A stretch of 64,000 nt of DNA from a virus (taxonomy: Duplodnaviria > Caudoviricetes), in the IMG/VR virus record IMGVR_UViG_3300032327_000792; one strand, 5' to 3'. The notes under the pieces are model-generated. The model saw only the letters and a list, made by a program, of their open reading frames with translations. It had not been told where the DNA came from and ran no database searches. The position numbers were made by a program, and so were the translations under genes. Positions 8,183 to 30,989 of the stretch are shown one piece after another. Position 1 is the stretch's first letter; the number at the start of each line of letters is the position of its first letter.

Positions 8183-8697
8183 TATCTCTGCCACCAATCT
8201 TCCCAAGGAAATACTATCCAACAATCATCTTCTGCTTTGTTGATAGTTTGCGCTGTATAGTTAATATCTAATTTGCTCTTGCTTGCTTCGTTGTCCAACA
8301 ATGTGGCCACTCTAACATTTTTACCCCAAACATCCGTGATCCATCTGTCGTCATTGGGTAAACAACTATTTTGCCAGTCTTGCTTGATCCAGTTAAGTGT
8401 GGCGCCGGTATCATTCAGGTCGTCCACAATAAGAATATTTTTGCCCCCGGATTCATTGTTGCCAAATGCATCCTCAGCCATCCATAAATTACTTTCAGTA
8501 TCTTCGTGATCACGTAAACTCACTTTAAGAGTATGCATTTTTACGTCTAAGTATTGGCTGATCATGGTAGCTGGAATCAATCCGCCACGTGTTAGCCCCA
8601 CAATGTAATCGGGTTGCCAGTTGTCACGTTGTAATTGACGTAAGATTTCTTGAACATGATTTTCCACATCTTGCCAAGTTAAAAATATTTTTTTCAT
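8182..8697 (-). CDS. Type I phosphoribosyltransferase (purine PRT-like)
   Basis: IVGLTRGGLIPA, PRPP loop ILIVDDLNDTGAT, WIVFPWE. Confidence 0.85.
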   Translation of the reverse strand: MKKIFLTWQDVENHVQEILRQLQRDNWQPDYIVGLTRGGLIPATMISQYLDVKMHTLKVSLRDHEDTESNLWMAEDAFGNNESGGKNILIVDDLNDTGATLNWIKQDWQNSCLPNDDRWITDVWGKNVRVATLLDNEASKSKLDINYTAQTINKAEDDCWIVFPWEDWWQR

Positions 8698-9503: not shown

Positions 9504-10033
9504 TTACCGTAATCTGGAAATTCAACTAAGATTGTACTACGATCGCTGTTGTAGGCTTTTTGATATGCTGGAAGAATATCTTCTGGATGATGCAACTCCA
9601 CAATGTCAATATTTTTACACATTAATCTAAATGCGTCTGCAAAATTGCCCTTGTGCTGATCTTGTGGGTCAACAGGATTTTCACTGCCCTTGGCCACACG
9701 AATAATAACTTTGGGTCTACAACGTCCGTCACTCATTGATTCCATTTTATCAAGGTGATTGACAATTTGATCTGTGGCCGTTAATAAAAAATTCCATCTT
9801 GGAACAACGCTAACAGGCACCATGCCATTGATTGCCATTCCTGTGCTTACACCAATTTGAAAGTTTTCGGCTACAGGAAACTCCATCTTCTTATTGTTGG
9901 GAACTTCTGTTATGCTTTCATAACACCCTGTGCCCGCATAGCAAACAGCCTGCCCAAGGATCATAACACGATCCTGTGCGCCAAGCCAATTCATTGCCGC
10001 TTTAAGTTGTTGATTATACAGTTGTGTGGTCAT
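9500..10033 (-). CDS. ThDP-dependent dehydrogenase/transketolase E1 beta-like subunit (pyrimidine-binding domain only)
   Basis: ILGQAV, MEFPVAENFQIGVSTGMA, DQIVNH. Confidence 0.8.
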   Translation of the reverse strand: MTTQLYNQQLKAAMNWLGAQDRVMILGQAVCYAGTGCYESITEVPNNKKMEFPVAENFQIGVSTGMAINGMVPVSVVPRWNFLLTATDQIVNHLDKMESMSDGRCRPKVIIRVAKGSENPVDPQDQHKGNFADAFRLMCKNIDIVELHHPEDILPAYQKAYNSDRSTILVEFPDYGK

Positions 10034-10653
10034 TAAAATTGTACCCTTACTCCGGCGCCAGCATGTGGATATTTGTGGTTTTTATATTTGTAATAGATTA
10101 AATGTTTACTTTTGTACCAAACTCTATTTTGTGCAGGTAGATACCACTTGTCAGCGCCCCACATCTCCTGAGTAGGAGTTAGTACGCTTAGTTCATTGTC
10201 TTCTACAACAAATGTAATTGGCAAGTCTTGTGCTTGGGCATACTTGTAGGCTTCGGCCCAGGCACCTGTTTCGGCACTCATATCACCAGTCCAACACCAT
10301 ACATGTTCATCTGTGCCACGAAGCTTTGCGGCAAGTGCCAGACCTGTTGCAATGCTAGGAATTCCACCTACAATGCTTGAACATATAAATTTGTATTCTG
10401 GCAAATTCATAACCATGCTTTTACCAGACATGATGCGTTCCTTAATTACTTCAGATGGAATACCTTTCAACAACGCTTGATAATGATTGCGCCAAGTACA
10501 ACAGATCCAATCTTTTTCGACGTCAATATGTTCAAACACTTGCATGATCTGATCTTCGTTGCCAGCATATAAATGTATAGGAGCACGAATTTCTCCACGA
10601 TTAAATGTTTCGCCTATATCTGTTTCAAAGTCAATTAGATCTTGTTTGTTCAT
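10033..10653 (-). CDS. ThDP-dependent dehydrogenase E1 alpha-like subunit
   Basis: APIHLYAGNE, WRNHY, GDMSAETG...VVEDN ThDP-binding motif. Confidence 0.85.
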   Translation of the reverse strand: MNKQDLIDFETDIGETFNRGEIRAPIHLYAGNEDQIMQVFEHIDVEKDWICCTWRNHYQALLKGIPSEVIKERIMSGKSMVMNLPEYKFICSSIVGGIPSIATGLALAAKLRGTDEHVWCWTGDMSAETGAWAEAYKYAQAQDLPITFVVEDNELSVLTPTQEMWGADKWYLPAQNRVWYKSKHLIYYKYKNHKYPHAGAGVRVQF

Positions 10654-11969
10654 AGATATAAACTCATAAACCCGTCGACCTTTTGCCCAATGTACTCAAT
10701 CTGTTCGGGAGTGATAACTGGACTACATCCATGGAAGTAAGTGTTCTTCATGGTAAAGGTGGCCACTGGATAGTTGTCACGTGCATCCACTGGATTCATT
10801 AAATGACTATACGCAGGTTGCAACATGATGTTACCAGCAAAGTATGGACGTGTCTGTATCAAGTTTTCTTCTAAGTAGTCAACAATGTCCATGCGAGAAA
10901 AAGGAGCATCCTTACGGATAGTCAAAGGAAAAGCAAACCAACTCACATCAGCCTTATCTCTGGCACGTGGCAAGTGGAAGAACTGTTCATACTTTTCATA
11001 GATGGCAAACAATAGATTGTAGTTACGTTGGCGTAAGGTATGTATTTCTGGCAACTTTTTAATTTGTTCAAGCCCCATAGCCGCCTGTAGTTCAATGGGT
11101 TTTAAATTGTAACCAATTTCATCATACACATATTTGTGGTCAAAGATCTCCCCGGGCATTTCTGGAATCCACTCATTGAATCGCTTGCCACAGGTGCCAC
11201 ATTTTAATTTGTTGGCCTCGGGTCCCACACAATAACAACCACGTCCCCATTCACGCAGGCTACGCACAATAATTTCTTGTTGTGGATTATTCATGGCCAC
11301 AAAGCCACCTTCGCCCATGGTCATGTGATGTGCCGGATAAAAACTACAGCTGGCCATCTCGCCAAAACTGCCTAGAGGTTTGCCATCATAGGTTGTGCCC
11401 AATCCATCACAACAATCTTCTAATAGTATTAGATTGTGTTTATCGACCAATTCCATCACACGATCCATGTTAGGTGGGTTACCCAATACATGTGCAAAGG
11501 TTATAATTTTAATGTCCGGATCATTAGCAAGTATCTGTTCTGCTTGATCTAGATCAATGTTTAAGGTATCAATTTCAATATCGCAGAACACTGGCGTAAA
11601 TCCATTTTGTATAGTTGGATTAAGTGTGGTTGGGAAACCGGCAATGGGCATCAATACTTTAGTGCCCGGTGGAAAGTTGTAGCCACGTTTGGATTTCATT
11701 GCTGCCATCATTAGTAAATTTGCACTGCTACCCGAGTTAGTCAATACGCCGCGTGTTTTACCAAATTCCTTTGGAAATTCTTGTTCAAACCGTAGGCTCT
11801 TGTTGCCCATAACCAGCCAACCATTGAGCAAGGCTTCGGCCGCCGCCACATATTCGTCTGACGTAAAATGCGGACCTGCATAGTTAACAAAGTCCTTGCC
11901 AGCTACCCAGGTCTTGTCTGAGTGTTTGGTATCAATGTATTTTTTAATGTCTTCTAATATTTGTTTCAT
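10650..11969 (-). CDS. rfbH: CDP-4-keto-6-deoxyglucose-3-dehydrase (RfbH/DdhC family)
   Basis: SFYPAHHMTMGEGG (His in place of the PLP Lys), RxWGRGCYC...CGxRF Fe-S cysteines, HKYVYDEIGYNLK. Confidence 0.85.
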   Translation of the reverse strand: MKQILEDIKKYIDTKHSDKTWVAGKDFVNYAGPHFTSDEYVAAAEALLNGWLVMGNKSLRFEQEFPKEFGKTRGVLTNSGSSANLLMMAAMKSKRGYNFPPGTKVLMPIAGFPTTLNPTIQNGFTPVFCDIEIDTLNIDLDQAEQILANDPDIKIITFAHVLGNPPNMDRVMELVDKHNLILLEDCCDGLGTTYDGKPLGSFGEMASCSFYPAHHMTMGEGGFVAMNNPQQEIIVRSLREWGRGCYCVGPEANKLKCGTCGKRFNEWIPEMPGEIFDHKYVYDEIGYNLKPIELQAAMGLEQIKKLPEIHTLRQRNYNLLFAIYEKYEQFFHLPRARDKADVSWFAFPLTIRKDAPFSRMDIVDYLEENLIQTRPYFAGNIMLQPAYSHLMNPVDARDNYPVATFTMKNTYFHGCSPVITPEQIEYIGQKVDGFMSLYL

Positions 11970-12691
11970 GTTTGAATACCCAGTTGATTACAAATTTCTT
12001 TCATGATGTTTATTACTGCTTGACTTCCACGGCTACCATGAAAATGTAGCATGTGTGCTTGATTTATATCTATACCGTTCCAATCATTGTGCCAATCTAT
12101 TATCTGTTGGTCCAGGATTCTTAAATTCATTGCTTGATAGGCCATCTTTGGATGCAGACGGTCCGAGTTTGGAATATCTTGACTCCAAAACATGGCGTTG
12201 TGTCTTAGCTGATCAAACCCCCAATTACGGTCTGGATGTGTTTCTCTTTGAGCCAACCACTCTTCACCCAATTTCCATACATTGGTTGACATGGTGTGTG
12301 GATAATATTGTATGTCGTCATTGAAATAGTGTGCAAAATCTCCATAACTTTTTGGATCAGTATTATTGAACAATCGATATTCAGTAAATTTATCTGAAAA
12401 TAATTCTGTAGGCTGAATCATAAGTGTGTCGGCACCGGCCCAGAATATATTACAGGGTTCACGATTCCATAATTCTTTAATGTCCAACCAATTTTGGTAA
12501 GTGCAGGTATCGGTGTTGGTAGCAGGGTCGGTCCATAATATTTCTTCAAACGGTTCCTTGACAAACTTACAAAAACTTGCTAATCTTAGATCATACATCC
12601 GACGATACTGAGCATGCAAGTCTTGATTTTTTTCAAGATGCCAGCCATCTTTGATTGGACGAACAGCACACACTAGATAATTTTTTACCAT
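11966..12691 (-). CDS. Putative glycosyltransferase (GT-A-like)
   Basis: IFWAGADTL DxD-like motif, DQ and LHFHG; sugar-gene context. Confidence 0.5.
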   Translation of the reverse strand: MVKNYLVCAVRPIKDGWHLEKNQDLHAQYRRMYDLRLASFCKFVKEPFEEILWTDPATNTDTCTYQNWLDIKELWNREPCNIFWAGADTLMIQPTELFSDKFTEYRLFNNTDPKSYGDFAHYFNDDIQYYPHTMSTNVWKLGEEWLAQRETHPDRNWGFDQLRHNAMFWSQDIPNSDRLHPKMAYQAMNLRILDQQIIDWHNDWNGIDINQAHMLHFHGSRGSQAVINIMKEICNQLGIQT

Positions 12692-13635
12692 ACAAAATTA
12701 TTCCTATAGTGATTGACTATCTGTTCTAGTTCTTGATCAAACTTAGCTACGGGCATCCATCCTAATTTTTTTAATTTGCTGTCGTCAATTGCATAGCGAA
12801 CATCTTGTCCTTGTCTGGTACTAGGTGTGATAAATGTTTCCCAATTGTCGTCGTGGTTAACGCCGTGGTATAAATGTAGTATTTTTTTAATTACTTCGCG
12901 ATTGGGCAATTCTGTGTTGCCACTGATATTAAATATTTCATTGATACACCCAGCATCAACAATAGACATTACAGCACTAGCAGTGTCTTTGGCATGCAAC
13001 CAAGTACGCACAGGCCTTCCATGATCGTGCAAATCAATTTTTCTGCCGAGCTCAAGATACTTGATTGATTTTGGAATAAGTTTTTCAACATATTGTCCAA
13101 TTCCATAGTTGTTGGTTGGACGTATAATAACATACTTAAGACCGTAGGTGCGAGCCCATGCCAATATCAACATATCGGCAGATGCTTTGGATGCACTGTA
13201 AGGATTGCTGGGTTTTAGTAAATCAGTTTCGGTATGGCTTCCTTGTTCGATATCGCCGTATACTTCGTCCGTTGAAAAATGCAACAACACAGGGGCTTTG
13301 TACTGTGGTTGTTGTTTGATTAGTTCCAGTAGTCTATGAACACCATTAATATTGCTACGTAAAAACACATCACTGCTCATAATCGAATTGTCTACATGTG
13401 TTTCGGCTGCGGTGTTAATTATATAATCGCAATCTACCAGTCTGTCAATATCGTTTATATCTTTGTGCAAGAAAGTAAAGGTGTTATAGGATTCAAACTC
13501 TTTTAAAAATGTCCAGTTACTAGCATAAGTGCCTTTGTCTATACCAAGCACATACCATCCTTGTTCTAAACATTGTCGAGTAACATGGACTCCTATAAAT
13601 CCCAAACATCCGGTTACATATGCAATTTTTTTCAT
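12685..13635 (-). CDS. rfbB: dTDP/NDP-glucose 4,6-dehydratase
   Basis: AAETHVDNSI, STDEVYG, PSNPYSASK, RPTNNYG, EKLIPK, RYAID. Confidence 0.9.
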   Translation of the reverse strand: MKKIAYVTGCLGFIGVHVTRQCLEQGWYVLGIDKGTYASNWTFLKEFESYNTFTFLHKDINDIDRLVDCDYIINTAAETHVDNSIMSSDVFLRSNINGVHRLLELIKQQPQYKAPVLLHFSTDEVYGDIEQGSHTETDLLKPSNPYSASKASADMLILAWARTYGLKYVIIRPTNNYGIGQYVEKLIPKSIKYLELGRKIDLHDHGRPVRTWLHAKDTASAVMSIVDAGCINEIFNISGNTELPNREVIKKILHLYHGVNHDDNWETFITPSTRQGQDVRYAIDDSKLKKLGWMPVAKFDQELEQIVNHYRNNFVW

Positions 13636-14632: not shown

Positions 14633-15082
14633 TTAACCCTCGTAGATAGCCGAGTTAGCACCGTGTTCTGCACATTCTACCCTTACGCAATAGCAACGGT
14701 TGTTGGTTTTTTCTCGAATCAACCGATCAGCAAAGTTAAAAGCATGTTCGGCAAACTTCTCTGCACCTACACCATCAAACATTCTGATCTCTGCCAGATT
14801 CAATGCTTCTAGTTCTTGGAACTTGGCTAGATGTGGATCTTGATAATCCAATGCCAATTTGTGATCAAAGTGATCTTCCAGCCATGCTTTGAGCGGTTTG
14901 AGTCCGCCAAAGTCTACTGCCCAGTTCTTGTTGTCTAATGAATCACAGCCAAACGTGAATGTGAATGCTAGACTATAGCCATGTAGCAAGTGACAATGTG
15001 AATGATCGGCGTTGGGTTGACGAAACACCGCACTCAATCCAATGTTGTGTCCGTAGTGTTTTGTTGAGTAATACGTTGCCAT
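14633..15082 (-). CDS. queD: 6-carboxy-5,6,7,8-tetrahydropterin synthase
   Basis: HSHCHLLHGY, WAVDFGGLK, FDH, C-terminal EHGANSAIY. Confidence 0.9.
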   Translation of the reverse strand: MATYYSTKHYGHNIGLSAVFRQPNADHSHCHLLHGYSLAFTFTFGCDSLDNKNWAVDFGGLKPLKAWLEDHFDHKLALDYQDPHLAKFQELEALNLAEIRMFDGVGAEKFAEHAFNFADRLIREKTNNRCYCVRVECAEHGANSAIYEG

Positions 15083-15165: not shown

Positions 15166-15558
15166 TTATTTATTCTTGTAATTACCCATGCCAGGAATTG
15201 TGTTGCGTACTCCGCCCACTGGATCAGCAACATCACCTTTCCTCCGCGGAATCAAATGTATGTGTGGCCATTCCACAGTCTGTCCAGCGGCTTCCCCATA
15301 GTTTAATCCAATATTGAACCCGTCCCATTGCCCCGACTCAACCATTTTTTTACCATAGCGGGCAGCATCTTCAAATGCGTCAGCAAGAACACCCAAGGTG
15401 TTGTATCGAGGAACAAACAACAAGTGGCCTGCAGTACATGGATATCGGTCTAGGAATACTCTGACATGAAAGTCTTCGCTGATCACTTGATCCCATGGTG
15501 CAGAACTATCTTCGACCAAGTCTGGTTGATTTTCAACTATACATTCTTTACGTGGCAT
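15166..15558 (-). CDS. HIT family nucleotide hydrolase
   Basis: GHLLFVP, FNIGLNYGEAAGQTV, HIHLIPR histidine triad. Confidence 0.92.
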   Translation of the reverse strand: MPRKECIVENQPDLVEDSSAPWDQVISEDFHVRVFLDRYPCTAGHLLFVPRYNTLGVLADAFEDAARYGKKMVESGQWDGFNIGLNYGEAAGQTVEWPHIHLIPRRKGDVADPVGGVRNTIPGMGNYKNK

Positions 15559-18004: not shown

Positions 18005-18703
18005 TTATCTTGGAGCAAACTCTTGTTGTAGCTTGATGTTATCAAAAAACTCTTTCTTTGTTCCTGAGTCTGTATTAAAAGCACCTTTAAGTACAGTGGT
18101 CTGTGTTAGACTAGAGTGTGCCATTATTCCTCTGTTTTCGCAACAGCCATGTGTAGCCTGGATGTATACACCAATGTTGCGGGAGTCAGTTGCGCGAGAT
18201 ATTTCTCTAGCAATGTCATTGGCTAGTTCTTCCTGCAAAGTGCCACGGCGAGCACACCACTGAGCAATTCGAGTATACTTAGACAAACCAATAAGTTTGT
18301 TTGCTGCAATAATTCCAATGTATGCGACACCGCTGACAGGCTGATGGTGGTGACTGCACATACTACGCAACTCACTCCGCACAACCAACATGCCTTCGTA
18401 TCTATCGTCAGAATCATTTGGAAAAGCTGTTGCATCTGGTGCAGGTTCGTATCTACCTGCCATAATTTCTGTAAAGTACATTTTAGCAAGACGTCTTGCT
18501 GTGCCTTTTGAGTTGGGATCATTTTCACGATCAATCAATAGAGTGTCTAATACTGTTTCAAATGCTTCCGTGGCTTCATCTATCAACACAGGCAAATCTA
18601 CTTCTGGATTAATGTATTCACTGATATTGTCGCCTGCCCAGAATCTTTTTTTGTCTGCGTGCATTGTTTCACGTAATACTTGTGCTAAGTTTTTTTCTGC
18701 CAT
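18005..18703 (-). CDS. folE: GTP cyclohydrolase I
   Basis: SMCSHHHQP, GLSKYTRIA, LQEEL, ATHGCCENRG, KKEF. Confidence 0.95.
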   Translation of the reverse strand: MAEKNLAQVLRETMHADKKRFWAGDNISEYINPEVDLPVLIDEATEAFETVLDTLLIDRENDPNSKGTARRLAKMYFTEIMAGRYEPAPDATAFPNDSDDRYEGMLVVRSELRSMCSHHHQPVSGVAYIGIIAANKLIGLSKYTRIAQWCARRGTLQEELANDIAREISRATDSRNIGVYIQATHGCCENRGIMAHSSLTQTTVLKGAFNTDSGTKKEFFDNIKLQQEFAPR

Positions 18704-18777: not shown

Positions 18778-19355
18778 GATTTAATTAAAATTTCTCTGCA
18801 GTCTGGATAAGTTACTGACTGACATTGAGGTGTTACGGTTGCTAGTTTTTCTATACCTAGCGCACATGTATCTAAAGTTGGGCAATAATGGTAGCCTTGC
18901 CCGAACGTGATTTGATCTTGCCAAGGGATAATTCGCAAGTTTCTACCATCCGAACGCATCATGGACAGTTGATCATATACTTCTACATCATCTGTTAAGA
19001 TGGCCCCGGACTTGCCTAGCTGTAGTGGTTTACCGTGACCAAAACTTAGACATTGTAATTGACCTGGCTGATACATACCGGGTTCCAATCTGCGGGCACT
19101 GTCCCAGATGCGAGTGCCGTTGAACTGATATTCCCCAGTCCAGTGATTGTTTGTTAATTCGTATTTGATGCCTAGTTGGTGCATCAACATTGGTATTGAT
19201 AGATAGGTGTGTGCTGTAAATGAAGTAGAGGTTACTTGGTCGTATCTCATACAAAGTTCAATGGCATGGGTGCAACCATCAGTGACTACTGCATATGGAG
19301 CTCCTGTGTATTGAGCCAGAGCTTGTTCAAAATCAAACAACGTTTTAAAACTCAC
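18774..19355 (-). CDS. Short DegT/DnrJ/EryC1/StrS-type PLP aminotransferase
   Basis: FEQALAQYTGAPYAV, WDSA, CLSFGHGKPL (PLP Lys), GAILTDD; GTG start assumed. Confidence 0.7.
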   Translation of the reverse strand: MSFKTLFDFEQALAQYTGAPYAVVTDGCTHAIELCMRYDQVTSTSFTAHTYLSIPMLMHQLGIKYELTNNHWTGEYQFNGTRIWDSARRLEPGMYQPGQLQCLSFGHGKPLQLGKSGAILTDDVEVYDQLSMMRSDGRNLRIIPWQDQITFGQGYHYCPTLDTCALGIEKLATVTPQCQSVTYPDCREILIKS

Positions 19356-20307
19356 GATTATACCATGCCCAAGCGTGCTGGACAACATCCTTTAGATTGT
19401 ATTGTGGTCGCCAGCCAGCATGACTGATAAATTTGCCAGCATCGGCTGTAAGTACAGCAGGATCACCTTCTCGGTTTGGGCCGTAACTCCAAGACAACTC
19501 GTCGTCGATTACACTGTTTGCAGTTCCTATGACTTCAAGATTGCTTGCTCCGGTAGTTGTACCAAGATTATAAACATCAGACACTACCAGCAACTTATTC
19601 AATGCCAAGACGTGTGCATCAGCAATATCGGCTACGTGAACATAGTCGCGAACACAAGTACCATCAGGTGTTCCATAATCACGGCCGTTACACACAAAGT
19701 CTTTGCCGTCTCGATAGTTTTCCAGTATTCTGGCAACAATGTGTGTAGCACCCGGTGCTTGACCATGCCTTGCTTGATGGTCAGCACCGCAGGCATTGAA
19801 ATATCTAAATGCCACAAAATCTAACCCATAAGCTCGTTGATATGATTTCAACAACCATTCAATCATCAGCTTGCTTTCACCGTAAGGGCTAATCGGCTCT
19901 GTGGGATCAACTTCATTGCATGGAGTGATTATAGGATTGCCATAGGTTGCAGCACTGCTAGAAAATATAAAGCGACCCAGCCATTTGATTTCTTTTAAAA
20001 AATCCAACAGATTTTTTGTTTTAACAAAATTGTTGTTGTAATAGTCTTCTGGATCCATTATGCTAGGACCAACAAGACTGGTGCCAGCACAGTGAATAAT
20101 TGCATCAGGCTGAATGGCGTTGATCCATTGATGGGATTCAACGCTATCAATATCCGATTGTAAAAATCCATCGAACAAATTCAACAAACGTAGATGTTCC
20201 GGTAACCTTGCCCGATCAACACCATACACTTCGTGTCCTTGATCTCGCAATTGAATAGCAGTTTGTCCGCCAATATAGCCACTGGCTCCGGTTACTAATA
20301 CCTTCAT
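19345..20307 (-). CDS. galE: UDP-glucose 4-epimerase
   Basis: TGASGYIG, FSSSAATYG, PYGESK, FRYFNACGAD, DGTCVRDYVHV, REGDP. Confidence 0.92.
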   Translation of the reverse strand: MKVLVTGASGYIGGQTAIQLRDQGHEVYGVDRARLPEHLRLLNLFDGFLQSDIDSVESHQWINAIQPDAIIHCAGTSLVGPSIMDPEDYYNNNFVKTKNLLDFLKEIKWLGRFIFSSSAATYGNPIITPCNEVDPTEPISPYGESKLMIEWLLKSYQRAYGLDFVAFRYFNACGADHQARHGQAPGATHIVARILENYRDGKDFVCNGRDYGTPDGTCVRDYVHVADIADAHVLALNKLLVVSDVYNLGTTTGASNLEVIGTANSVIDDELSWSYGPNREGDPAVLTADAGKFISHAGWRPQYNLKDVVQHAWAWYNREF

Positions 20308-20885
20308 GTATAATCCGTTAGTTTTTGTTTAATAGCATTTGTTAATGCTAGATGATTAGATGGTTTTTGATATATTCTATATTGTGAGTCAATGTTGTTG
20401 ATATCTTCGTAGTATAATTTTAAATGATATTGATAGTCAAGTTTGTTGAGATTTTTATTATTGTTTAATATGTATTTAATTAGGTAATCAAAATTTTCTG
20501 GTTTAATCTCGACTGTATATTCTTGCATGTTGTTGAATTTTGTAAAATGCCAATTTCCAGTTTCACAACATAAGTAAAAACTGGTAATTTGTTCTATGAT
20601 ATTTTTTCTTTCTAATTTGATAAGAAAACTATCAGTTACCAATTGATTTATAAATTCAATGTTAGAATTAGTAATTTGATCCGGCATTATCTTAATAACA
20701 AATTTGTTATGAGAGGTTAAAAATGCTTTAAAATTTTCTAACCTTTTAGAAAAATCTACATGTAATACTTCATCAAAATTAACTAATTTATATTTTTTAC
20801 TAATATAGTCGCATAACGCTGTAGAACCAGTTCTGTAAGATGTAAAAATAACAACTGATTTGTTTTCCGGAATTACTAAATTCAT
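20304..20885 (-). CDS. Putative sulfotransferase (Stf0-like)
   Basis: TSYRTGST 5'-PSB-like loop, LER...S 3'-PB, LYYED; AT-rich. Confidence 0.55.
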   Translation of the reverse strand: MNLVIPENKSVVIFTSYRTGSTALCDYISKKYKLVNFDEVLHVDFSKRLENFKAFLTSHNKFVIKIMPDQITNSNIEFINQLVTDSFLIKLERKNIIEQITSFYLCCETGNWHFTKFNNMQEYTVEIKPENFDYLIKYILNNNKNLNKLDYQYHLKLYYEDINNIDSQYRIYQKPSNHLALTNAIKQKLTDYT

Positions 20886-22060
20886 TAGTGTTTGGCCTCT
20901 GCTACATAGTCACGATACCTATTGCCAGCTCTGTTCCATTGCTCACCTTCGCCTTTGATAATATCACAAATGCGATCAATGGTGCCATTGTTCCAATCGC
21001 TGATTTGACCTTGACGGGCGTGTGGTGCTTGCATTAGTTTCTGTAACTTGGCAACAGCATCATCCATTGACCAAGGAATGTACAAACGATCGGCATCGTT
21101 GGCAAAGGTTTCTGGAAAACTTCTGTATGCAGGATACAGAACATTACAACCTAGTGTGTCTGCTTCGCTGACAGTGTTTGACACCCAGTCTTGCAACGCA
21201 CAGTTGAACAGTACTTTGCTGTCATTAACAATATTGTAATAGTCATTCTTCTGCAAATCTTTGTAGATCTTTAGCGTGCCTTCAGCTTCTAATTTGTAAG
21301 CACGATCCAAGTAACGTTGATTGTTACTGCGCAACGGCCCGCCACTTAACACAGCAAACTCATAGTCCTTGCCCCACTCAGTGGACTTAACTTGTTCAAT
21401 CAAGTCCATGTAAAAGTCTGGTTGTTTCTCTTGATCAAAGCGTGCAGCAAACACAACACGGTTACTGCGTTCTGCCCATGGTTTAACCAAGTTATTAACG
21501 CGGCCTAGAACTTCTTGTTTGCCAAATGCCAAGCCACTGATATTGTAGATAGGAGCAGTCCAGTTAGCAATACGCATGTGAGCCACCATCTCTTCGTTGG
21601 TGGCCAGCACAGTGGCAAACTCATTGACCATCTGTTCATACAAGCTCATCCACTTGCTCATACCCCATACGTGTACAAAGTCATCGGGGTCAATGGCCTG
21701 TGCCAAACAACGTACATAAATTTGTGGTCTTTGCTCTGCTGGAATTTGATCCATGATGTATGGCAATGATTCAATGCCAGGTTGGAACATGTCTTCGAAG
21801 TATACTACATCTTCACCGCTACATTCACCACTGCGCATCAGTTGAACCAAGTTCATCATTTGACTCATACCAAAGAAACTGCGACCATGTGCATCTAACA
21901 CTTGGCCAACAGAGATTGCTCGGGTATTGTCGATGGTTGAACCTGGAACTACAACATAATTGATTTTGCGCTTCTTAAACACAGCTTCGTTCCATTGTTG
22001 CAACTGAAGTGTATAACGGCCTTCGTAGGGTTCAAGGCCCATGTAAAAAAGTTTTCTCAT
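20885..22060 (-). CDS. GT-B fold glycosyltransferase
   Basis: FAARFDQEKQP and LFNCALQDWVSNTVSEADTLG donor-binding region. Confidence 0.7.
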   Translation of the reverse strand: MRKLFYMGLEPYEGRYTLQLQQWNEAVFKKRKINYVVVPGSTIDNTRAISVGQVLDAHGRSFFGMSQMMNLVQLMRSGECSGEDVVYFEDMFQPGIESLPYIMDQIPAEQRPQIYVRCLAQAIDPDDFVHVWGMSKWMSLYEQMVNEFATVLATNEEMVAHMRIANWTAPIYNISGLAFGKQEVLGRVNNLVKPWAERSNRVVFAARFDQEKQPDFYMDLIEQVKSTEWGKDYEFAVLSGGPLRSNNQRYLDRAYKLEAEGTLKIYKDLQKNDYYNIVNDSKVLFNCALQDWVSNTVSEADTLGCNVLYPAYRSFPETFANDADRLYIPWSMDDAVAKLQKLMQAPHARQGQISDWNNGTIDRICDIIKGEGEQWNRAGNRYRDYVAEAKH

Positions 22061-23005: not shown

Positions 23006-23449
23006 TTAGATTTTGATTGAAAGGTTAGGACGAGATAATTCGTATTTGATCAAACAGCCGTTCTCGCCATCTTCGGCCACTTCGATCCACACAGCACGAT
23101 TGGGGTATCGTTCTGCGATCTTAATATATATGTCATCAGCAATCATCTCGCAACTTTTGTAGTCTAGTTTAAGAGTGCCTGTAGAGTATAAGTTTTCCAG
23201 CCAGCGTTTGAATTGAATGAACTCAATGTCTCGATCATTGTGGAATACATCAATCCACACACGGAAGTGAAATATGTGACGATGTGGATTGGCCAAGAAA
23301 CTAACGTCATATTCATCTCCGGTGGCCAACAAGGGATTTGTGGCTGCATCTGGATAACGATGAATTCCTTCTTTTTTAAACGTTACCCAAATCTTTCGTT
23401 CAGCTTCGTTGATAATACGCATGGCCTGTACTCGTTCTTCGTTGATCAT
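23006..23449 (-). CDS. QueD-like T-fold protein (DpdL-like)
   Basis: LANPHRHIF matches LxxxHRHxF; RDIEFIQFKR and SCEMIA resemble the QueD core. Confidence 0.7.
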   Translation of the reverse strand: MINEERVQAMRIINEAERKIWVTFKKEGIHRYPDAATNPLLATGDEYDVSFLANPHRHIFHFRVWIDVFHNDRDIEFIQFKRWLENLYSTGTLKLDYKSCEMIADDIYIKIAERYPNRAVWIEVAEDGENGCLIKYELSRPNLSIKI

Positions 23450-23712
23450 GTTTTCAAACCTTCAATAGTGATAATTTTACCAATCTCTGTTCCAAGATCC
23501 TGCGTGTCAAGTATAACATACAATCCTGAGTTTGTGTGATCTTTTCGGATATTGTAGCTAGAGGTTTCGACAATAGTACCTCCATTGGCTTTATAGACTT
23601 TTAGTTGAAATCCATGAGCGTCAATTCGATCTGAATGGTGGTAGTCGTCTAACTGAATCAAATCATCATTGTTGTTGACCCAATTGCGTAGACGTTTTTT
23701 AATCCATCTCAT
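23446..23712 (-). CDS. Hypothetical protein
   Basis: 88-aa ORF with ATGA overlap. Confidence 0.65.
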   Translation of the reverse strand: MRWIKKRLRNWVNNNDDLIQLDDYHHSDRIDAHGFQLKVYKANGGTIVETSSYNIRKDHTNSGLYVILDTQDLGTEIGKIITIEGLKT

Positions 23713-23714
23713 AA

Positions 23715-24296
23715 TTATTGTTTCTCAAAATGTTTCATGAATGTATCTCTGGCACCAGAAATGTTATGTATTTGTTTCATAGCTTTATCAGTAATACGCA
23801 TTCTGTAAGAATTATGATGACCGTATCCATCTAAAATTACCCAACCATTTTTTGACTTGATAGTTTTGTCTCGGCAATTTGACATAATTTGATCTCGGCA
23901 ATCATAATACCCAGCAGCTAATTTTTCCTGTGTGGTGTCTATTGCCATATCAACTAACTTAACCGACGAAACTTCAAGAAAGTCTGTATCATAAGTGATT
24001 TGATTTTGATTTTGAGTTTTATGATAGTAACGGGTATCTTCCCACTTGTCCGCAACTTTGATTGCGTCAATGGTCATTGATCCAACAGTGTGGGCTGCTT
24101 TACTACCTTTGCGCCGAGTTTTATTGTCAATGCCATACTGAGGGTGATCTACTAAACCGTTTTTGTCAATGGCATGACCTTTGTTTTCCATCAGGTTGTC
24201 GGCCCACTGACCAATATCACAATCATTTGTAAAACTAGGAATACTAGTTCCTTGGGTAATATTATCTTTGATAACGCTTACTCTGGCTTTTTTCAT
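23715..24296 (-). CDS. Hypothetical protein, possible PD-(D/E)XK nuclease
   Basis: VD-x6-DNK pattern only; weak functional evidence. Confidence 0.5.
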   Translation of the reverse strand: MKKARVSVIKDNITQGTSIPSFTNDCDIGQWADNLMENKGHAIDKNGLVDHPQYGIDNKTRRKGSKAAHTVGSMTIDAIKVADKWEDTRYYHKTQNQNQITYDTDFLEVSSVKLVDMAIDTTQEKLAAGYYDCRDQIMSNCRDKTIKSKNGWVILDGYGHHNSYRMRITDKAMKQIHNISGARDTFMKHFEKQ

Positions 24297-24823
24297 TTTA
24301 GTGTTTCATCCTTGGTATATCTAGACCAGTCTGTGAATACTGATCGATCTTGTAAATCGTGTATGTTATGACACCACACGCCGGGATTTGTTGCTCTAAA
24401 GTCTTTGTCGTCTAACTTCAATGTAGCGTTGTAGCCTAGTTGTTTGATATATGGTAGCTTGACACTGATCATTGGAATAAAGTTATTGTATTCAACCAAT
24501 GGACCCTCTATCAATCCTTCTGAGCAACTAACATCAATATCTAGTGTACACATATAATAGTGATCGCCACCGTGACCACTACGTAACAATAGTCCTACCA
24601 TGTCTTCCCAAGGCTTCCATTTGTTGCTGTCAATGTCTAACTTTGGAAAACTTTGATTGGCACCAAAATAGATATGATCACATTTGTGTGCCAGTGCTGT
24701 AGCATGTATTTTGGCTGGATCTTGTACACCTACAACAAACAAAGTCTTCATGCCAAACGCTGGCGTATGTTCTACTTCTGTGCCAATAAAGAAACGGGTA
24801 TCTTCGTGTCCTGGTCTATCCAT
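24293..24823 (-). CDS. Hypothetical protein linked to the DpdA-like gene
   Basis: 176 aa, overlaps the dpdA-like stop codon; HIYFGANQSF motif. Confidence 0.75.
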   Translation of the reverse strand: MDRPGHEDTRFFIGTEVEHTPAFGMKTLFVVGVQDPAKIHATALAHKCDHIYFGANQSFPKLDIDSNKWKPWEDMVGLLLRSGHGGDHYYMCTLDIDVSCSEGLIEGPLVEYNNFIPMISVKLPYIKQLGYNATLKLDDKDFRATNPGVWCHNIHDLQDRSVFTDWSRYTKDETLK

Positions 24824-26618
24824 TTTTCTCTAACTGATCTAATTTGGCAACTTCATCTTGGGAAAAGTCTTCACCATGCTCTAATTGTACACTATCCGCT
24901 TCTTCAATGTCAAATAAATCGGTAAATGTAGACTCAGTTGGCTTCTCTGGTTCCGTTGGTTTCTCTTTGGTCAGGTTTGCCTCAATGACAAAATGCTTGT
25001 TGGCGTTGGTGTGAGGATTAATGGTTTTGTCACCTTTGAATCCACGTGTGCCAGGAATGTCCATCCAGTATCTGCTGTAGTGTTTAATTATGGCTTCGGA
25101 TTCTTCTCTACTGCCTGTGGCAAAAATAGCATCTACAATGTCCTTGAACATACTGTTGTCGCCTAGTTTCTTTTTGGTTCCTGTAAATCTCATCATGTGC
25201 GGCCATTTGCCAGCATCGTATTCTCGATTGGCTCGTTGAACTGCTTCAATGTGCATCCAAACATTATGACCCATCAGCAGGGCATAACTGAAACTGTCCC
25301 AACTGGTGGTACCTTCTTTGCCAACTTTGTTTAAATCACCAGGTTTATAGATACAAATATCTTTCATTTGTAACAACTTGGAAATCGGTGATTCGTCAAA
25401 ATGATCAATCAGTCCATCTGCTACCACTGCTTGACCATATGGTCGTGTATCAGAGCTATACTTCTTATCATCAACAATTGGACTCATTCTATAACACCAT
25501 TTGTCGTTGTGTGGCAAGTCAATGTGATGATATACCTGTCCGTTGGCTGTGGCCAAGAAAGGTGACGCACAGTCAAAGCTGATGGTGAAATTTGGATTTA
25601 CATACCGGCGTACAGCACGTTGAATGTCTGTCAACAATACTGCCCACTCTAGCTTACTTGTACCCAAAAAGTGCATCCAATCGTGTACGCCTTCTTGTAA
25701 CAATCCATCGTGACGAAGAGCCACAAGACGCTGGAGAATTAAGTGTACATCGCACATGTTCTGACCACCCATGGACCAGCCATTGAAATGCGTATCGGGA
25801 TATTTTTTAGGATCGCAATAATCCTTCATCAATTGATACCAATCTTCGGCCTCTTCGTGATTGGATCCTTGTAACACGTTTAAGAATTTGGCACCGCCAT
25901 TTTTAACGCCTTTACGATGTTTCATAAAGTATTCGTTGTTGTATTTGGTAGCTTCCACAGCTTCTTGATATTCGGTAATACCGCAGGCCGCTGACGCTTT
26001 TTTGTCGTGTATGACCCAGGTTGGGATATCAAGAATCATGCCATAGTCGCTGACACCATCTAGCCATTTAAGCACCGCTTCTCGTTTGGTCTGGGCAGCG
26101 TTGATTAACTTTTGATAATTTTTAGCATGATCAATTGTGACGGTTTTAGGGTTACCTTTTTTGTCTGCAACAGGTTTGCCATTTTTGTCCAATACCGGGC
26201 GTACCTCAACACCAGCTTTTACCAAATCTGCCATCTTTTGGGTGACTTCTGCACTAGTAGGATCGCGCCACTCTCCTTCCCATAGACCTTTGGCAATCTG
26301 GAATCCACCAGAGTCACCTAGAATCAAGGTACTAGGATCGCGATTGCGAACCATGTCTTCTGACCAATCTTGTTTGGTTAAATCTAAGTTGGCATGTCCA
26401 CCGGAGTACAATGACCATTTATAAGGAAACAGAGCCTTTTGATCATTGAGCCAGTTCATCATTTCCATATCTAATCCTGCTGGCATACGTGCAGGATCTA
26501 CATATGGCGGACTTGCTGGATCTCGTTGTTTGCCTATAAACGTGGCATAGAAACCTGAGATAGCCGGCAAGAACACAGCATAGTCATTTTGCTTTGCGGT
26601 TAGGTTGTCTTGAGACAT
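24816..26618 (-). CDS. dpdA: tRNA-guanine transglycosylase-like protein (DpdA-type DNA deazaguanine transglycosylase)
   Basis: ILGDSGGFQI, MILDIP, VLQG, GWSMGG, HFLG and SFDCASP TGT barrel motifs; no CxCxxC Zn site seen. Confidence 0.75.
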   Translation of the reverse strand: MSQDNLTAKQNDYAVFLPAISGFYATFIGKQRDPASPPYVDPARMPAGLDMEMMNWLNDQKALFPYKWSLYSGGHANLDLTKQDWSEDMVRNRDPSTLILGDSGGFQIAKGLWEGEWRDPTSAEVTQKMADLVKAGVEVRPVLDKNGKPVADKKGNPKTVTIDHAKNYQKLINAAQTKREAVLKWLDGVSDYGMILDIPTWVIHDKKASAACGITEYQEAVEATKYNNEYFMKHRKGVKNGGAKFLNVLQGSNHEEAEDWYQLMKDYCDPKKYPDTHFNGWSMGGQNMCDVHLILQRLVALRHDGLLQEGVHDWMHFLGTSKLEWAVLLTDIQRAVRRYVNPNFTISFDCASPFLATANGQVYHHIDLPHNDKWCYRMSPIVDDKKYSSDTRPYGQAVVADGLIDHFDESPISKLLQMKDICIYKPGDLNKVGKEGTTSWDSFSYALLMGHNVWMHIEAVQRANREYDAGKWPHMMRFTGTKKKLGDNSMFKDIVDAIFATGSREESEAIIKHYSRYWMDIPGTRGFKGDKTINPHTNANKHFVIEANLTKEKPTEPEKPTESTFTDLFDIEEADSVQLEHGEDFSQDEVAKLDQLEKNG

Positions 26619-27340
26619 TACTTGCTTTGTGCTGGAAGAATATAGTTATAAGTTGCCATGCCTGAATCTACAGTGATCATTGCTGCACCATCATCGCTGA
26701 TCTTGACCACTTTGTCGCCTGTTAGATCCATAATGCTGATAAAAGTTTTAATTGGCCATGCCCATGAACGTTTTAATTGTCCTGTAACATCCGGCTGGAA
26801 CACAAAGTTACCTGCGTGTGTTGAATGATCGCCAAAGAAGAACTTTAGGTTGCCATCTTCTGTTTTGGCTTGAAAGTTTACTTCTTCTGCGTTGGCACTG
26901 GCCTGCATTTTTAGTCGCTGAATACTGGCCACCGTTGGTTCAAACTCAATATGCCAGTTTACACCTTTGAACTTGACTGTTTTGAGTTTTTCGTTAACAA
27001 TTTCTGATGCCATAAAACGATAGTTGTTTTTAAAGTCACCAGTGGCATTTTCAAAGTTGATGCCATCTGGCGCACCAGTATCCTTGCGTGTCACTGATAA
27101 CTTGGCATTTTCTTTGTACTCTTGAATGTTCAACAAGATGTTTAGTTTGGTCAAGTTTGGCATACCGAATGTGCCCACAAACTCTGCCACTGGTGCTGAA
27201 TATTTGCCTTCCACTACCACGCTACGATCTTCGGCCATGCCTGCAATCAATGTCTCGTTGGCATCGCCTGTGATTTTCACTAGGTCAATGCAACCCAATT
27301 TCAATGTGTGTTCTACTAAGTCTAATAAATGATCTCTCAT
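26618..27340 (-). CDS. DNA polymerase sliding clamp (gp45/PCNA-like)
   Basis: 240 aa with a beta-rich pattern; C-terminus MITVDSGMATYNYILP; lies between polB and dpdA. Confidence 0.65.
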   Translation of the reverse strand: MRDHLLDLVEHTLKLGCIDLVKITGDANETLIAGMAEDRSVVVEGKYSAPVAEFVGTFGMPNLTKLNILLNIQEYKENAKLSVTRKDTGAPDGINFENATGDFKNNYRFMASEIVNEKLKTVKFKGVNWHIEFEPTVASIQRLKMQASANAEEVNFQAKTEDGNLKFFFGDHSTHAGNFVFQPDVTGQLKRSWAWPIKTFISIMDLTGDKVVKISDDGAAMITVDSGMATYNYILPAQSK

Positions 27341-28331: not shown

Positions 28332-30989
28332 TCACCACTCGAACAAAGTTTGGAAGGTGTTGTCTGTGTTGGTAGCCGACGCTAAATCCCAATCCAGTAC
28401 ACCCAATAAGTTGTCAACCTTGCCGTCAATCACAGTGGCTTCCATCTCAGCATCGTCGAACGGTAGTTCTTTGAACCATGCCGGCAGGTGTAACTCATCT
28501 GTGGGGTATCCGATTGAAGTCCACCCAAGTGCATTTGATTTCAACTTACACACAATGGTTTTCATACCATCCACAATCTGCAATGAATAATTATCGCTGT
28601 TCATTCTGCGCAAGTTATTCCAGTTAAGTGCAGCACGAACGTGTCCGGGCATATTGGTCTTGCCTTCACGTTCTTCTTTCTTGCCATACATGGTCAAGTT
28701 GTTCACACGTTTAGGACTACCTTTTTCCCAGCCCGGTCGTTCTTTGAACAAGTATTTAAACTCTCGAATCTTTTCCACCACTTGTTCTTTGCCAGCACCT
28801 GTTAGAACACTGTGCAAAACATCACTCAAGAAGTTTTGAATAACCACTGGAGTATCCGATCGTTTTAGATCTAGCCCCATGGCTTTTACTTTGCCGGGCT
28901 TGCCGTCGGTATCTAGACGTCGACCTTCTTTGTCTATGATCATCACAGCATAGCGTTTCTTGGTAATAAACAAACCTTTGGAAGCTACGACTTCTCGACC
29001 ACCCATGATTACTTCGCCCATTTCTCTTGGACAATGAAATGCCTGTTCCATAAAGCCTGGAAAACTTTGGTTAACTTGATCAGCAATTGAATCATACAAC
29101 GCAATGCAGGTTTCTTTGGACCACTCCAGTCGGCCTTCTTCTACTTCTTTTTTCAACACTGGCCAAGCTGAAAAGTAGCAAGAGTCTGTGTCACCGTAGA
29201 TAATAGTTTCGCCTGTGTGATCGTATTTGCCTGTGACGCATTCATTTACATAAGCATCCATGTGCTTGGCAATGGCACGTCCAGTAAGTGTTGTTGATTG
29301 TCCAATACGCTTGTCAAAAAACCTGCAACCAGGATTAAGAATAGCGCCATACAAACTGTTAAGATTGATCTTTTTAACCAACTGTCTTTTGTCCCAGTAT
29401 TCTTCATCTTCTTTGTTCTCACATAGTTTTAATCGGGCCTGCATGTCTTTACGTTCGGCATACCAACGCTTTAACAAACCAGGAATGATACCTTCTTTCT
29501 CAAAGGTAAAGATAGTGCCATTGGCCGAAATGATCCAGGGCTGGTTTGAGTCAAACACAATCTTCCACACTTCGGCGGCACTGTGTACCGACTCGTCACC
29601 ATCTTGCCAGTCGATAGTAATCTCTGTGCCACGTTGTTGATCCATCACAGCAGTATATTCTAGACTGGCAAACAAACCTTCCCAGGCTGCTGCAAAACTG
29701 GCACCTCCACGCATTTTGTCGGAGATGTAACGATCAGTCATTGTGGGTCTGAGTTGACCAACAATTGTTTCTGGCCCCATGTTGAGAGCACGGATTGCCG
29801 ACGGATACAGTGAGTTGATGTCAATTGATCCAATGTATTCGTGGATACCTTTTTTAGGGTAAGCAACGTAGGCACCTGCAGCCTGAGTATCTTCATCGGT
29901 AAGTCTTTCTTTGCGATTAGGTACAACCATACCACGTTCGTGTGCTTCATTGATAATGGCTTGTTCTGTTACGGCCACAGCTCCCATTGTTGTTTGTAGC
30001 AACACAGTGTTTTCATGTGCTAGAGTATTGGCCAGATCCAAAAACTTCAGCTTGGCATCCAGCTTGGCCAACAACAAGGTATCTTGTCTGTTGTACTCAA
30101 TAAACGTTTTGAAGTTTTGATTGTACAACTGATCTAGTGTGCCTTCGAATGCTGTTTTTCGTTCGTCTAGTTCATATTCGCCGATGGCATCCAAACTGTA
30201 ACTGTGGCGTTCTTCGTATGTGTACTTGCGATACAGTTGCATATAGTCCATATGCACACGACCAATCAAGTCATAAGTTTCTTGTTCAGCACCAAAGCGT
30301 TCAAACACACGCTTTTTGGGATACTGATTCCACAGGCACATTCTACGAGTGTCGTCCTTGCTTAGAACTCTAGTGATACGATTGATAGTGTAAGGTATAT
30401 CAAAGCCTTCTGAGTTCCACCCTGAAAGGGCATCAGCATCCTCGATTAGGTCCAAAAATACTTTAAGCATGTCTGCTTCGTTGTCAAACAACATAGTGTT
30501 GGAGAACTCTCCGGTAATTTCTTCAGCAGTGGTCCGACTCATGTGCTTGGGAGGAATGACTAGAGTGACCATTTGTTCCAACCAGCCCAAGTACACTGAG
30601 ATAGCAGTAATTGGATTGAATGGATCATCGGGCCGACTAAAACCACGTTCTGGATCAAAGTCTACTTCAATATCAAAAAATGCTGTGTGTAATTTTGGAC
30701 CGTCTTGTCCTTTGTAGTTTTCTTCTAGGCAACGAAAGATAGGGTTAATATCAGACTCATACAATTGCGTGCCTGACTGGATACGCATCTCTTTTCGAAA
30801 CTCTTTGTTGTTGCGTGTTGAGAATCGACTCACAGGTGTTCCATAGATTGATTGGAACTTGCCTCGGGGGTCGTCATAATAGAAAATGTAGTTGGCCGGA
30901 TATTCGCGATACTCTCTGCGTCCATCCCGGCGCTCAACTACATGTATGCGATCGTGTTCACGATCAAATAGTGCATCAATATAACTCAT
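28332..30989 (-). CDS. Family B DNA polymerase (gp43-like)
   Basis: FDIEVD, GWNSEGFD and YNRQD exonuclease motifs; DINSLYPS, KINLNSLYG, YGDTDS and KKRY polymerase motifs. Confidence 0.97.
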   Translation of the reverse strand: MSYIDALFDREHDRIHVVERRDGRREYREYPANYIFYYDDPRGKFQSIYGTPVSRFSTRNNKEFRKEMRIQSGTQLYESDINPIFRCLEENYKGQDGPKLHTAFFDIEVDFDPERGFSRPDDPFNPITAISVYLGWLEQMVTLVIPPKHMSRTTAEEITGEFSNTMLFDNEADMLKVFLDLIEDADALSGWNSEGFDIPYTINRITRVLSKDDTRRMCLWNQYPKKRVFERFGAEQETYDLIGRVHMDYMQLYRKYTYEERHSYSLDAIGEYELDERKTAFEGTLDQLYNQNFKTFIEYNRQDTLLLAKLDAKLKFLDLANTLAHENTVLLQTTMGAVAVTEQAIINEAHERGMVVPNRKERLTDEDTQAAGAYVAYPKKGIHEYIGSIDINSLYPSAIRALNMGPETIVGQLRPTMTDRYISDKMRGGASFAAAWEGLFASLEYTAVMDQQRGTEITIDWQDGDESVHSAAEVWKIVFDSNQPWIISANGTIFTFEKEGIIPGLLKRWYAERKDMQARLKLCENKEDEEYWDKRQLVKKINLNSLYGAILNPGCRFFDKRIGQSTTLTGRAIAKHMDAYVNECVTGKYDHTGETIIYGDTDSCYFSAWPVLKKEVEEGRLEWSKETCIALYDSIADQVNQSFPGFMEQAFHCPREMGEVIMGGREVVASKGLFITKKRYAVMIIDKEGRRLDTDGKPGKVKAMGLDLKRSDTPVVIQNFLSDVLHSVLTGAGKEQVVEKIREFKYLFKERPGWEKGSPKRVNNLTMYGKKEEREGKTNMPGHVRAALNWNNLRRMNSDNYSLQIVDGMKTIVCKLKSNALGWTSIGYPTDELHLPAWFKELPFDDAEMEATVIDGKVDNLLGVLDWDLASATNTDNTFQTLFEW

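Follow-up and report, generated by a model that had tools for sequence, protein, structure and literature searches.

How might a phage without queC place a 7-deazaguanine base in its DNA, and which of its genes would take part? This question is raised by a locus in a 64,000-nucleotide stretch of viral DNA (Duplodnaviria; Caudoviricetes; IMG/VR record IMGVR_UViG_3300032327_000792), which we refer to as the window. It was taken from an 85-kb viral record whose CheckV completeness of 24% implies a jumbo phage with a genome of some 350 kb. Nearly all genes in the window lie on the minus strand, where five closely packed open reading frames (ORFs) of 600, 176, 193, 88, and 147 amino acids occupy positions 23006–26618. 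The original prediction, made from the letters alone, read this interval as a queC-less deazaguanine DNA modification locus with a second QueD paralogue. Based on the comparisons described below, we conclude that the locus probably encodes a QueC-independent system, built around the QueD paralogue DpdL, that replaces guanine in the phage DNA with a 7-deazaguanine base and yields a sugar-bearing end product. The coordinates of all features are collected in Table 1.

The enzyme that sets this pathway apart was defined by Cui, Hutinet et al. (NAR, 2023; PMC10516641) as a QueD paralogue in which the CxxxHGH motif of QueD is replaced by LxxxHRHxF. It was named DpdL and proposed to decarboxylate 7-carboxy-7-deazaguanine (CDG) to 7-deazaguanine in phages that carry DpdA, FolE, QueD, and QueE, and that lack QueC (PMC10516641). 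The 147-amino-acid protein of the window contains the sequence LANPHRHIF at residues 52–60, an exact fit to this pattern, and aligns throughout with the DpdL proteins of Acidovorax phage ACP17 (gp125; 57.5% identity, E = 5e-40) and Cellulophaga phage phiST (CGPG_00067; 34.2% identity, E = 9e-8). Judged by these alignments, we regard it as a true DpdL homologue. The original prediction had noted the motif and had given both the name DpdL and its link to CDG decarboxylation, all of which agree with the published account. DpdL was found in 72 of the 80 related viral loci on which our gene-order counts are based (together with eight contigs binned into metagenome-assembled genomes, or MAGs, at 42–65% identity), and in all five large relatives of the record. 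In Vibrio phage Bakedbeans, a DpdL domain lies inside a 393-amino-acid ORF (L170, 8206–9387), a possible fusion that could hint at partners.

The genes for the preceding steps, folE, queD, and queE, had been listed as part of the same interval. All three are indeed present on the minus strand; they are located outside positions 23006–26618, further downstream. QueD of the window carries the motif C-H-L-L-H-G-Y (C-x3-H-G-Y), which is of the same type as in the QueD proteins of ACP17 and phiST. The QueE sequence includes ELFYSLQGEG...GCNFTCAGFGC and is 44% identical to QueE of Synechococcus phage BUCT-ZZ01, while the NCBIfam models cover residues 17–52 only and score far under their cut-offs. 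As for QueC, the only match in the 85-kb record was the PP-loop of a gene resembling nadE. The description of the pathway as queC-less holds for the record as far as it extends, and is carried by relatives of 317–354 kb, three of which have a CheckV completeness of at least 90%. Across five related records of 240–354 kb, of which one is 100% complete, we found no QueC, no QueF, and no Pfam-type tRNA-guanine transglycosylase (TGT), bar the PP-loop of one NadE-like gene. All five retain QueE along with DpdL.

The putative inserting enzyme is the 600-amino-acid protein, described in the original prediction as TGT-like with a DSGGFQ motif. The motif is found at residues 102–107, and DSGG[FY]Q recurs almost throughout the 80 family members that we inspected. 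An alignment of 93 sequences shows no variation at S72, D102, S103, G105, H316, or D349, and D197 is kept in at least 90% of them. The family is very large: a word-indexed collection gave more than 7,400 matches, which reduce to 902 representatives at 50% identity. Searches of Pfam, PHROG, NCBIfam, and the PDB gave no sequence match to the protein, and an hmmsearch of the PDB with the family profile was also empty. An AlphaFold2 model based on the 93 sequences reached a predicted local distance difference test score (pLDDT) of 89.2 and a predicted template modelling score of 0.87. When the PDB was searched with this model using Foldseek, the top 50 matches were all TGT entries (E about 1e-7). 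In an exhaustive VIA-align comparison, five TGT-family structures ranked first with Z scores of 14.6–17.1, whilst unrelated TIM barrels scored 11.6 or less. The five were archaeosine TGT (1iq8; Z 17.1, root-mean-square deviation 5.0, 302 aligned positions), QTRT2 (6fv5; 16.8), bacterial TGT (3unt; 16.0), Cap10 (14.6), and the DNA insertase DpdA for 7-cyano-7-deazaguanine, or preQ0 (7ui4; 14.6).

Profile–profile alignments with hhalign point in the same direction. The family profile matched E. coli Tgt (91%, E = 1.1e-6), with the pairs GDSGGFQ/TDSGGFQ, ILDIPT/IFDECT, and SFDCASP/MFDCVMP. Catalytic aspartates were located by reference to Zymomonas mobilis TGT, in which they are D102 (DSGGFQ), D156, and D280 (FDC). 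The segments DSGGFQ, LDIPT, LNVLQG, GWSMGG, HFLG, and FDCASP of the window protein are in register with the TGT active-site motifs, both catalytic aspartates included. The original prediction had proposed a hidden Markov model comparison with the DpdA subfamilies. A profile of DpdA3-like proteins (ACP17 gp123, the 416-amino-acid protein of BUCT-ZZ01, and phiST CGPG_00065) was matched at 97.1% (E = 5.7e-11, 176 columns), whereas DpdA1 of Enterobacteria phage 9g (gp03) aligned over only 19 columns at an S-x-D-S/C-S-S motif with a probability of 1%, which is no significant relation. No BLAST-level similarity to DpdA3 proteins was found, and the lengths differ (600 versus 259–437 amino acids). When E. 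coli Tgt was used as the query, tblastn recovered no phage DpdA. Taken from the model and the profiles, the 600-amino-acid protein is a predicted TGT-fold enzyme with its catalytic aspartates in place, and the comparison with the ACP17, BUCT-ZZ01, and phiST proteins suggests that it represents a long, divergent branch, typified by Pseudomonas jumbo phage PA5oct, that is distantly related to DpdA3.

The neighbors of two homologues in cultured phages give this family its metabolic setting. In PA5oct, EST35_0316 (31% identity) follows the DNA polymerase and a clamp-like protein and is itself followed by a glycosyltransferase (GT), DpdL, a phosphoribosyltransferase (PRT), and QueE. In Vibrio phage 2.275.O, the homologue is NVP2275O_468 (L175; MG592671.1, 330216–332006), which is annotated as hypothetical. 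It is surrounded by QueF, a transporter annotated as vitamin uptake, a queuosine-synthesis gene, an amidotransferase (Gat), and FolE, a cluster of the type that makes 7-aminomethyl-7-deazaguanine (preQ1). NVP2275O_468 is probably a DpdA that has escaped annotation, belonging to a preQ1-type system in a jumbo phage that is in culture. Because of these two clusters, the TGT-fold family is tied to 7-deazaguanine synthesis in two pathway variants.

The 176-amino-acid product, p176, whose gene overlaps dpdA, had been singled out as a candidate unassigned member of the pathway, and that proposal gained strength. The overlap amounts to 8 nt, and in 78 of the 80 related loci p176 is the next gene after the TGT-fold gene. 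On five of the eight MAG-binned contigs it immediately precedes DpdL, and on two more just one small ORF or a brief gap intervenes. It has more than 7,000 metagenomic homologues. Among cultured phages, homologues occur only in the PA5oct group (46% identity) and in ACP17 (gp122, 32%), all of which carry DpdL, and in ACP17 the gene for gp122 immediately precedes that of the DpdA3-like gp123. Membership of p176 in the DpdL pathway is thus well supported by its conservation. Its conserved residues look enzyme-like, with H50, N56, K136, D138, D139, N146, and W150 invariant and E16, E18, H19, C48, C92, and C151 nearly so.

Database comparisons of p176 gave no clear match. There was no PDB sequence match, none of 76 family members matched Pfam, and a protein-atlas feature search stayed below 0.9. 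The predicted structure (pLDDT 89.8) is an alpha/beta partial barrel, for which Foldseek returned nothing from the PDB at E values up to 0.001. The best VIA-align matches, STAS domains (Z 6.5) and QueE (Z 5.0–5.7), are all within the noise range. A shape search of the ESM Atlas gave a QueE cluster with a TM score of 0.58, but hhalign against QueE of the window was null and we therefore claim no QueE relationship. Three other genes that were considered as p176 homologues were ruled out: EST35_0317 of PA5oct, which is the GT; CGPG_00066 of phiST, which is not homologous; and the "glycosylase" upstream of DpdL in Sinorhizobium phage Phosso. Small genes upstream of the GT in Xanthomonas phage BUDD (143 amino acids; L169, 6039–6470) and Burkholderia phage BCSR5 (155 amino acids; L172, 11632–12099) share the N-terminal pattern GxEVE..TLF..HxY with p176. 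The hhalign E values (0.009 and 0.002, respectively) are not significant, and these genes may be very distant p176 relatives. On contig L184 (1913–2890), a region resembling p176 lies inside a 326-amino-acid ORF, possibly a fusion that could hint at partners.

The argument for a sugar starts from gene order. The core series of DpdA-like gene, p176, DpdL, p73, and GT was observed across the 80 viral and eight MAG-binned contigs, and the same order recurs on one short, more divergent contig; a megablast search of a phage collection with the whole locus gave no match. The GT of the window has a D-x7-E motif that aligns with E-x7-E of the ACP17 and PA5oct enzymes. Of eleven phage lineages compared, seven carry a GT no more than about 2 kb from DpdL, in varying gene orders and with both types of transglycosylase. 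Homologous, DpdL-linked GTs are found in PA5oct, ACP17, BUCT-ZZ01 (70% identity), the Xanthomonas phages BUDD and X1, BCSR5, and Phosso. None was found near DpdL in phiST, RHph_I1_18, Bakedbeans, or Ahp1 (within 9 kb for the last three). No GT lies beside the TGT-fold gene in the QueF-type cluster of 2.275.O, and we conclude from this that the GT goes with DpdL rather than with the transglycosylase. GalE is the likely source of the donor sugar. The second GT-like gene would, together with the first, permit a disaccharide. The adjacency of PRT and QueE recurs in PA5oct and BUCT-ZZ01, and a PRT lies within the cluster on contigs L181 and L185. The GT, GalE, DegT-like protein, HIT protein, second GT-like protein, and PRT have no place in the published scheme for 2′-deoxy-7-deazaguanosine (dDG).

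The closest described system is the DpdL/DpdA3 system of phiST, in which dDG makes up 100% and which encodes FolE, QueD, QueE, DpdL, and DpdA3; it represents the only group of DpdL phages that has been measured (PMC10516641). phiST and the window have in common FolE, QueD, QueE, a divergent TGT-like gene, and a DpdL with the LxxxHRHxF signature; QueC was found in neither, and in both the genes cluster beside the DNA polymerase. They differ in the transglycosylase, which has 600 amino acids here and 259 there with a distant profile match only, and in their accessory genes: phiST has MazG and a dUTPase-like gene, and is without p176, p73, GT, GalE, HIT, and PRT. ACP17, BUCT-ZZ01, and BUDD share DpdL, GT, and clusters of QueE, FolE, and QueD with the window, and their transglycosylases are of the shorter, DpdA3-like type (DSGGLQ / FDEIP / SYDSTTHT).

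PA5oct (Wroclawvirus) shares the TGT-fold family (31% identity), DpdL (58%), the GT, the PRT–QueE pair, and a p176 homologue (46%), as well as the order polymerase, clamp, TGT-like gene. Its layout differs, with the GT placed between the TGT-like gene and DpdL and with p176 ~26 kb away. Its counterparts are annotated as hypothetical, except for QueE. PA5oct DNA is resistant to restriction enzymes with G-containing sites, and a preprint deduced a modified G from the presence of QueE and PTPS genes and named no transglycosylase (PMC12191111). In the literature that we searched, we found no identification of the modified base.

Two further systems are instructive by comparison. Phage 9g, which contains 2′-deoxyarchaeosine (dG+) made with DpdA1, has the same order of polymerase, clamp, and DpdA as the window. 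Its DpdA1, the bacterial DpdA 7ui4, and tRNA TGTs share the TGT fold and the catalytic aspartates with the 600-amino-acid protein, which differs from the 9g system in the lack of a significant DpdA1 profile match, of a Pfam TGT match, and in the precursor branch, QueC/Gat-QueC being absent here. The T-even phages contain glucosylated hydroxymethylcytosine, with a GT-B gene beside the base-modification genes, and the sugar in the major groove protects the DNA from nucleases. They provide a functional model for the GT of the window. The T-even base, however, is a pyrimidine whose hydroxymethyl group accepts the sugar, whereas no acceptor group is known on dDG.

In the pathway that we propose, FolE, QueD, and QueE would convert GTP to CDG, in keeping with the established functions of these families, and DpdL, a published and as yet unproven candidate, would convert CDG to 7-deazaguanine. 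The 600-amino-acid protein would then replace guanine with the deazapurine in double-stranded DNA after replication, as DpdA enzymes do. The p176 protein, coupled in translation to the transglycosylase gene, would be an obligatory partner or a tailoring enzyme that is required for one step. The GT, fed by GalE, would most likely add a sugar to the inserted base to give a sugar-bearing deazaguanine, and the modification would shield the phage DNA from host nucleases. Given that the GT and the other extra genes are conserved, a related base is more likely as the end product than plain dDG, which we consider doubtful. A bolder proposal, which we put forward only tentatively and would not yet bet on, is that the product is a new DNA base, a 7-deazaguanine carrying a sugar that is transferred by the DpdL-linked GT-B enzyme from a galactose-type donor supplied by GalE, that p176 is a new required enzyme or subunit, and that the 600-amino-acid family constitutes a very widespread further branch of DpdA. 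No description of a sugar-bearing purine as a DNA base was found in the literature searched.

Several observations weigh against a QueC-independent system with a sugar-bearing product. The record is 24% complete, and the window therefore cannot itself show that QueC is missing. Expression of DpdL together with DpdA in E. coli produced no dDG, and the activity of DpdL is unproven in the literature; p176 would be a candidate for the "missing factor" behind this failure. The Pfam TGT model PF01702 found no match at E values up to 1 in the window record and the five relatives. No cysteine column is at least 90% conserved among the 93 family sequences, so that the canonical zinc-site cysteines are not apparent, and the window protein has no CxCxxC after D349. 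We infer from gene context only that DNA rather than tRNA is the substrate. Finally, C7 of 7-deazaguanine bears no hydroxyl or amino group that would obviously serve as an acceptor, which leads us to C-glycosylation at this electron-rich position, left free once DpdL has removed the carboxylate, as one, speculative, route, and phiST reaches 100% dDG without a GT, from which it follows that the GT is not needed for dDG and could serve otherwise.

These last two points favor the idea that the product is plain dDG, as in phiST, and that the GT, GalE, HIT protein, and PRT serve glycosylation of the virion or host surface, or nucleotide salvage, and merely share an early-gene neighborhood. The accessory sugar island at 8694–13635 is likewise evidence that sugar genes build up in this part of the genome, and three DpdL phages besides phiST lack a nearby GT, as noted above. 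However, the GT lies close to DpdL in seven otherwise unrelated lineages, it is absent where the TGT-fold family sits in a QueF-type cluster, and p73 and GalE hold their positions around it. We regard plain dDG as a possible but less likely outcome. It is rather improbable that the base enters the DNA during replication. In such a route, the PRT would make a nucleotide of CDG or 7-deazaguanine, kinases and ribonucleotide reductase would carry it to a deoxynucleoside triphosphate, and the polymerase would incorporate it, leaving the TGT-fold protein with an auxiliary role, such as the modification of tRNA or the repair of residual G. Nucleotide formation by a PRT has precedents in the biosynthesis of tubercidin and toyocamycin, the recurrent pairing of PRT with QueE fits, and it is easier to imagine how incorporation would replace every G, as happens in phiST. 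Yet the clusters that we examined in phiST, ACP17, BUDD, and BCSR5 contain no PRT, every DpdL cluster inspected includes a transglycosylase, and Cui et al. argue for insertion after replication (PMC10516641).

That the TGT-fold enzyme acts on host or phage tRNA, and not on DNA, would accord with its best structural matches, which are tRNA enzymes, and with the contextual nature of the case for DNA. We nevertheless judge it very improbable, in that the gene lies between the clamp and DpdL in a replication module, as DpdA1 does in 9g, the protein has relatives among the DpdA3-like proteins of phages whose DNA is fully modified, and PA5oct DNA resists G-dependent restriction. Hardly any credence remains for a replacement of QueC by the PP-loop amidotransferase that resembles NadE, which would convert CDG to 7-amido-7-deazaguanine. 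The gene adjoins QueE in the window and in G001, the chemistry (carboxylate to amide via an adenylate) is the same, and there is the weak match to the QueC PP-loop. Against this, NCBIfam scores it as a bona fide NadE, four of the five near-complete relatives do without it yet retain DpdL, QueE, and the TGT-fold gene, and it does not occur in the clusters of other phages. We rejected it as a QueC substitute because of its absence from these four relatives. With the first possible TTG taken as its start, the NadE-type gene seems to share up to ~70 nt with the end of QueE.

Table 1. Features of the deazaguanine locus and its surroundings in the window (positions are those of the 64,000-nucleotide stretch)
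Feature	Position	Strand	Evidence and remarks
NadE-type NAD synthetase	6516–7370	-	TIGR00552 169.8 bits (cut-off 63.65); adjoins QueE
QueE (CDG synthase, radical S-adenosylmethionine enzyme)	7298–8224	-	N-terminal QueE motif 5e-11; full-length homology to annotated phage QueE
Purine (xanthine/guanine-type) PRT	8182–8697	-	Pfam Pribosyltran 60.9 bits; NCBIfam xanthine PRT 1.2e-17; adjoins QueE
RmlD/epimerase-like gene	8694–9503	-	Sugar island
Split thiamine pyrophosphate-dependent enzyme	9500–10033 + 10033–10653	-	Sugar island
RfbH-like CDP-hexulose 3-dehydrase	10650–11969	-	NCBIfam 436 bits (cut-off 423); sugar island
241-amino-acid gene without identified family	between the 10650–11969 and 12685–13635 genes	-	Sugar island
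dTDP-glucose 4,6-dehydratase-like gene	12685–13635	-	Sugar island
Second GT-like protein, 282 amino acids	13632–14480	-	phrog_14945 glycosyltransferase 1.5e-10; directly after QueD; same place in several relatives
QueD (6-carboxytetrahydropterin, CPH4, synthase)	14633–15082	-	Pfam PTPS 51.7 bits (cut-off 22.4); 55% identity to BUCT-ZZ01 QueD
HIT-family protein	15166–15558	-	Pfam HIT 41 bits; between FolE and QueD, position conserved
FolE (GTP cyclohydrolase I)	18005–18703	-	Pfam PF01227 133 bits; NCBIfam FolE ~1e-38
DegT-like aminotransferase remnant or short form, 204 amino acids	18774–19388	-	Pfam DegT 8.2e-13, two pieces; 40/80 loci
GalE (UDP-glucose 4-epimerase)	19345–20307	-	NCBIfam TIGR01179 291.5 bits (cut-off 262.3); after GT in most relatives
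GT-B (GT4-like) glycosyltransferase	20885–22060	-	Pfam Glycos_transf_1 28.6 bits (cut-off 26.4); 60/80 loci
p73, 73 amino acids	22774–22995	-	Between DpdL and GT; 51/80 loci; same position in 6/8 MAG-binned contigs
DpdL, 147 amino acids, predicted CDG decarboxylase	23006–23449	-	LANPHRHIF; phrog_17812 2.9e-35
88-amino-acid ORF	23446–23712	-	Variable small gene between p176 and DpdL; 51/80 loci; no family match
193-amino-acid ORF	23715–24296	-	2/80 related loci; no family match
p176, 176 amino acids	24293–24823	-	Family without annotation; start overlaps end of TGT-fold gene by 8 nt
TGT-fold protein, putative DNA guanine transglycosylase, 600 amino acids	24816–26618	-	Predicted structure and profile–profile comparison
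Sliding-clamp-like protein	26618–27340	-	35% identity to PA5oct EST35_0314
Methyltransferase-like protein, 318 amino acids	27374–28330	-	Weak phrog_4752 "tRNA methyltransferase"; between DNA polymerase and clamp-like gene
DNA polymerase, 885-amino-acid single ORF	28332–30989		

Some of the genes in Table 1 appear to be peripheral. The 193-amino-acid ORF is probably an accessory, mobile-like insertion outside the pathway; a homologue lies upstream of p176 on the MAG-binned contig L181. The sugar-nucleotide island (8694–13635, minus strand) is accessory and looks like a pathway for a dideoxy or branched sugar. The 80 relatives do not share it, apart from cross-matches of its dehydratase-like gene to their GalE. 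A gene resembling a PIG-L family N-acetylglucosamine de-N-acetylase, and thus a further sugar-tailoring enzyme, adjoins the GT of the DpdL cluster in BCSR5 (L172, 10921–11628). Upstream of the clamp, the gene for the methyltransferase-like protein is kept in 72 of the 80 relatives and possibly encodes another nucleic-acid modification enzyme. The DNA polymerase gene of PA5oct (L003, 1605–6831) is interrupted by a homing-endonuclease gene, and its orthologue in the window, ~45–52% identical, is uninterrupted.

DNA containing 7-deazaguanine is a recently opened field, and its DpdL branch is built on a single phage group and on an enzyme whose activity has so far resisted reconstitution. What was known is the DpdL/DpdA3 logic of the phiST type; what is new is the transglycosylase branch and at least six conserved extra genes. 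Outside the Cellulophaga phages, DpdL travels with p176, p73, GT, GalE, HIT, and a purine PRT, which are candidates for the missing parts of the published pathway. The jumbo phages of the PA5oct type, whose G-modified DNA had no such enzyme named for it, now have a candidate transglycosylase assigned to them. Carriers of these genes are already in culture (PA5oct, ACP17, BUCT-ZZ01, BUDD, and Phosso), and modifications of this kind decide whether phage DNA can be read by restriction enzymes, CRISPR nucleases, and sequencing chemistries.

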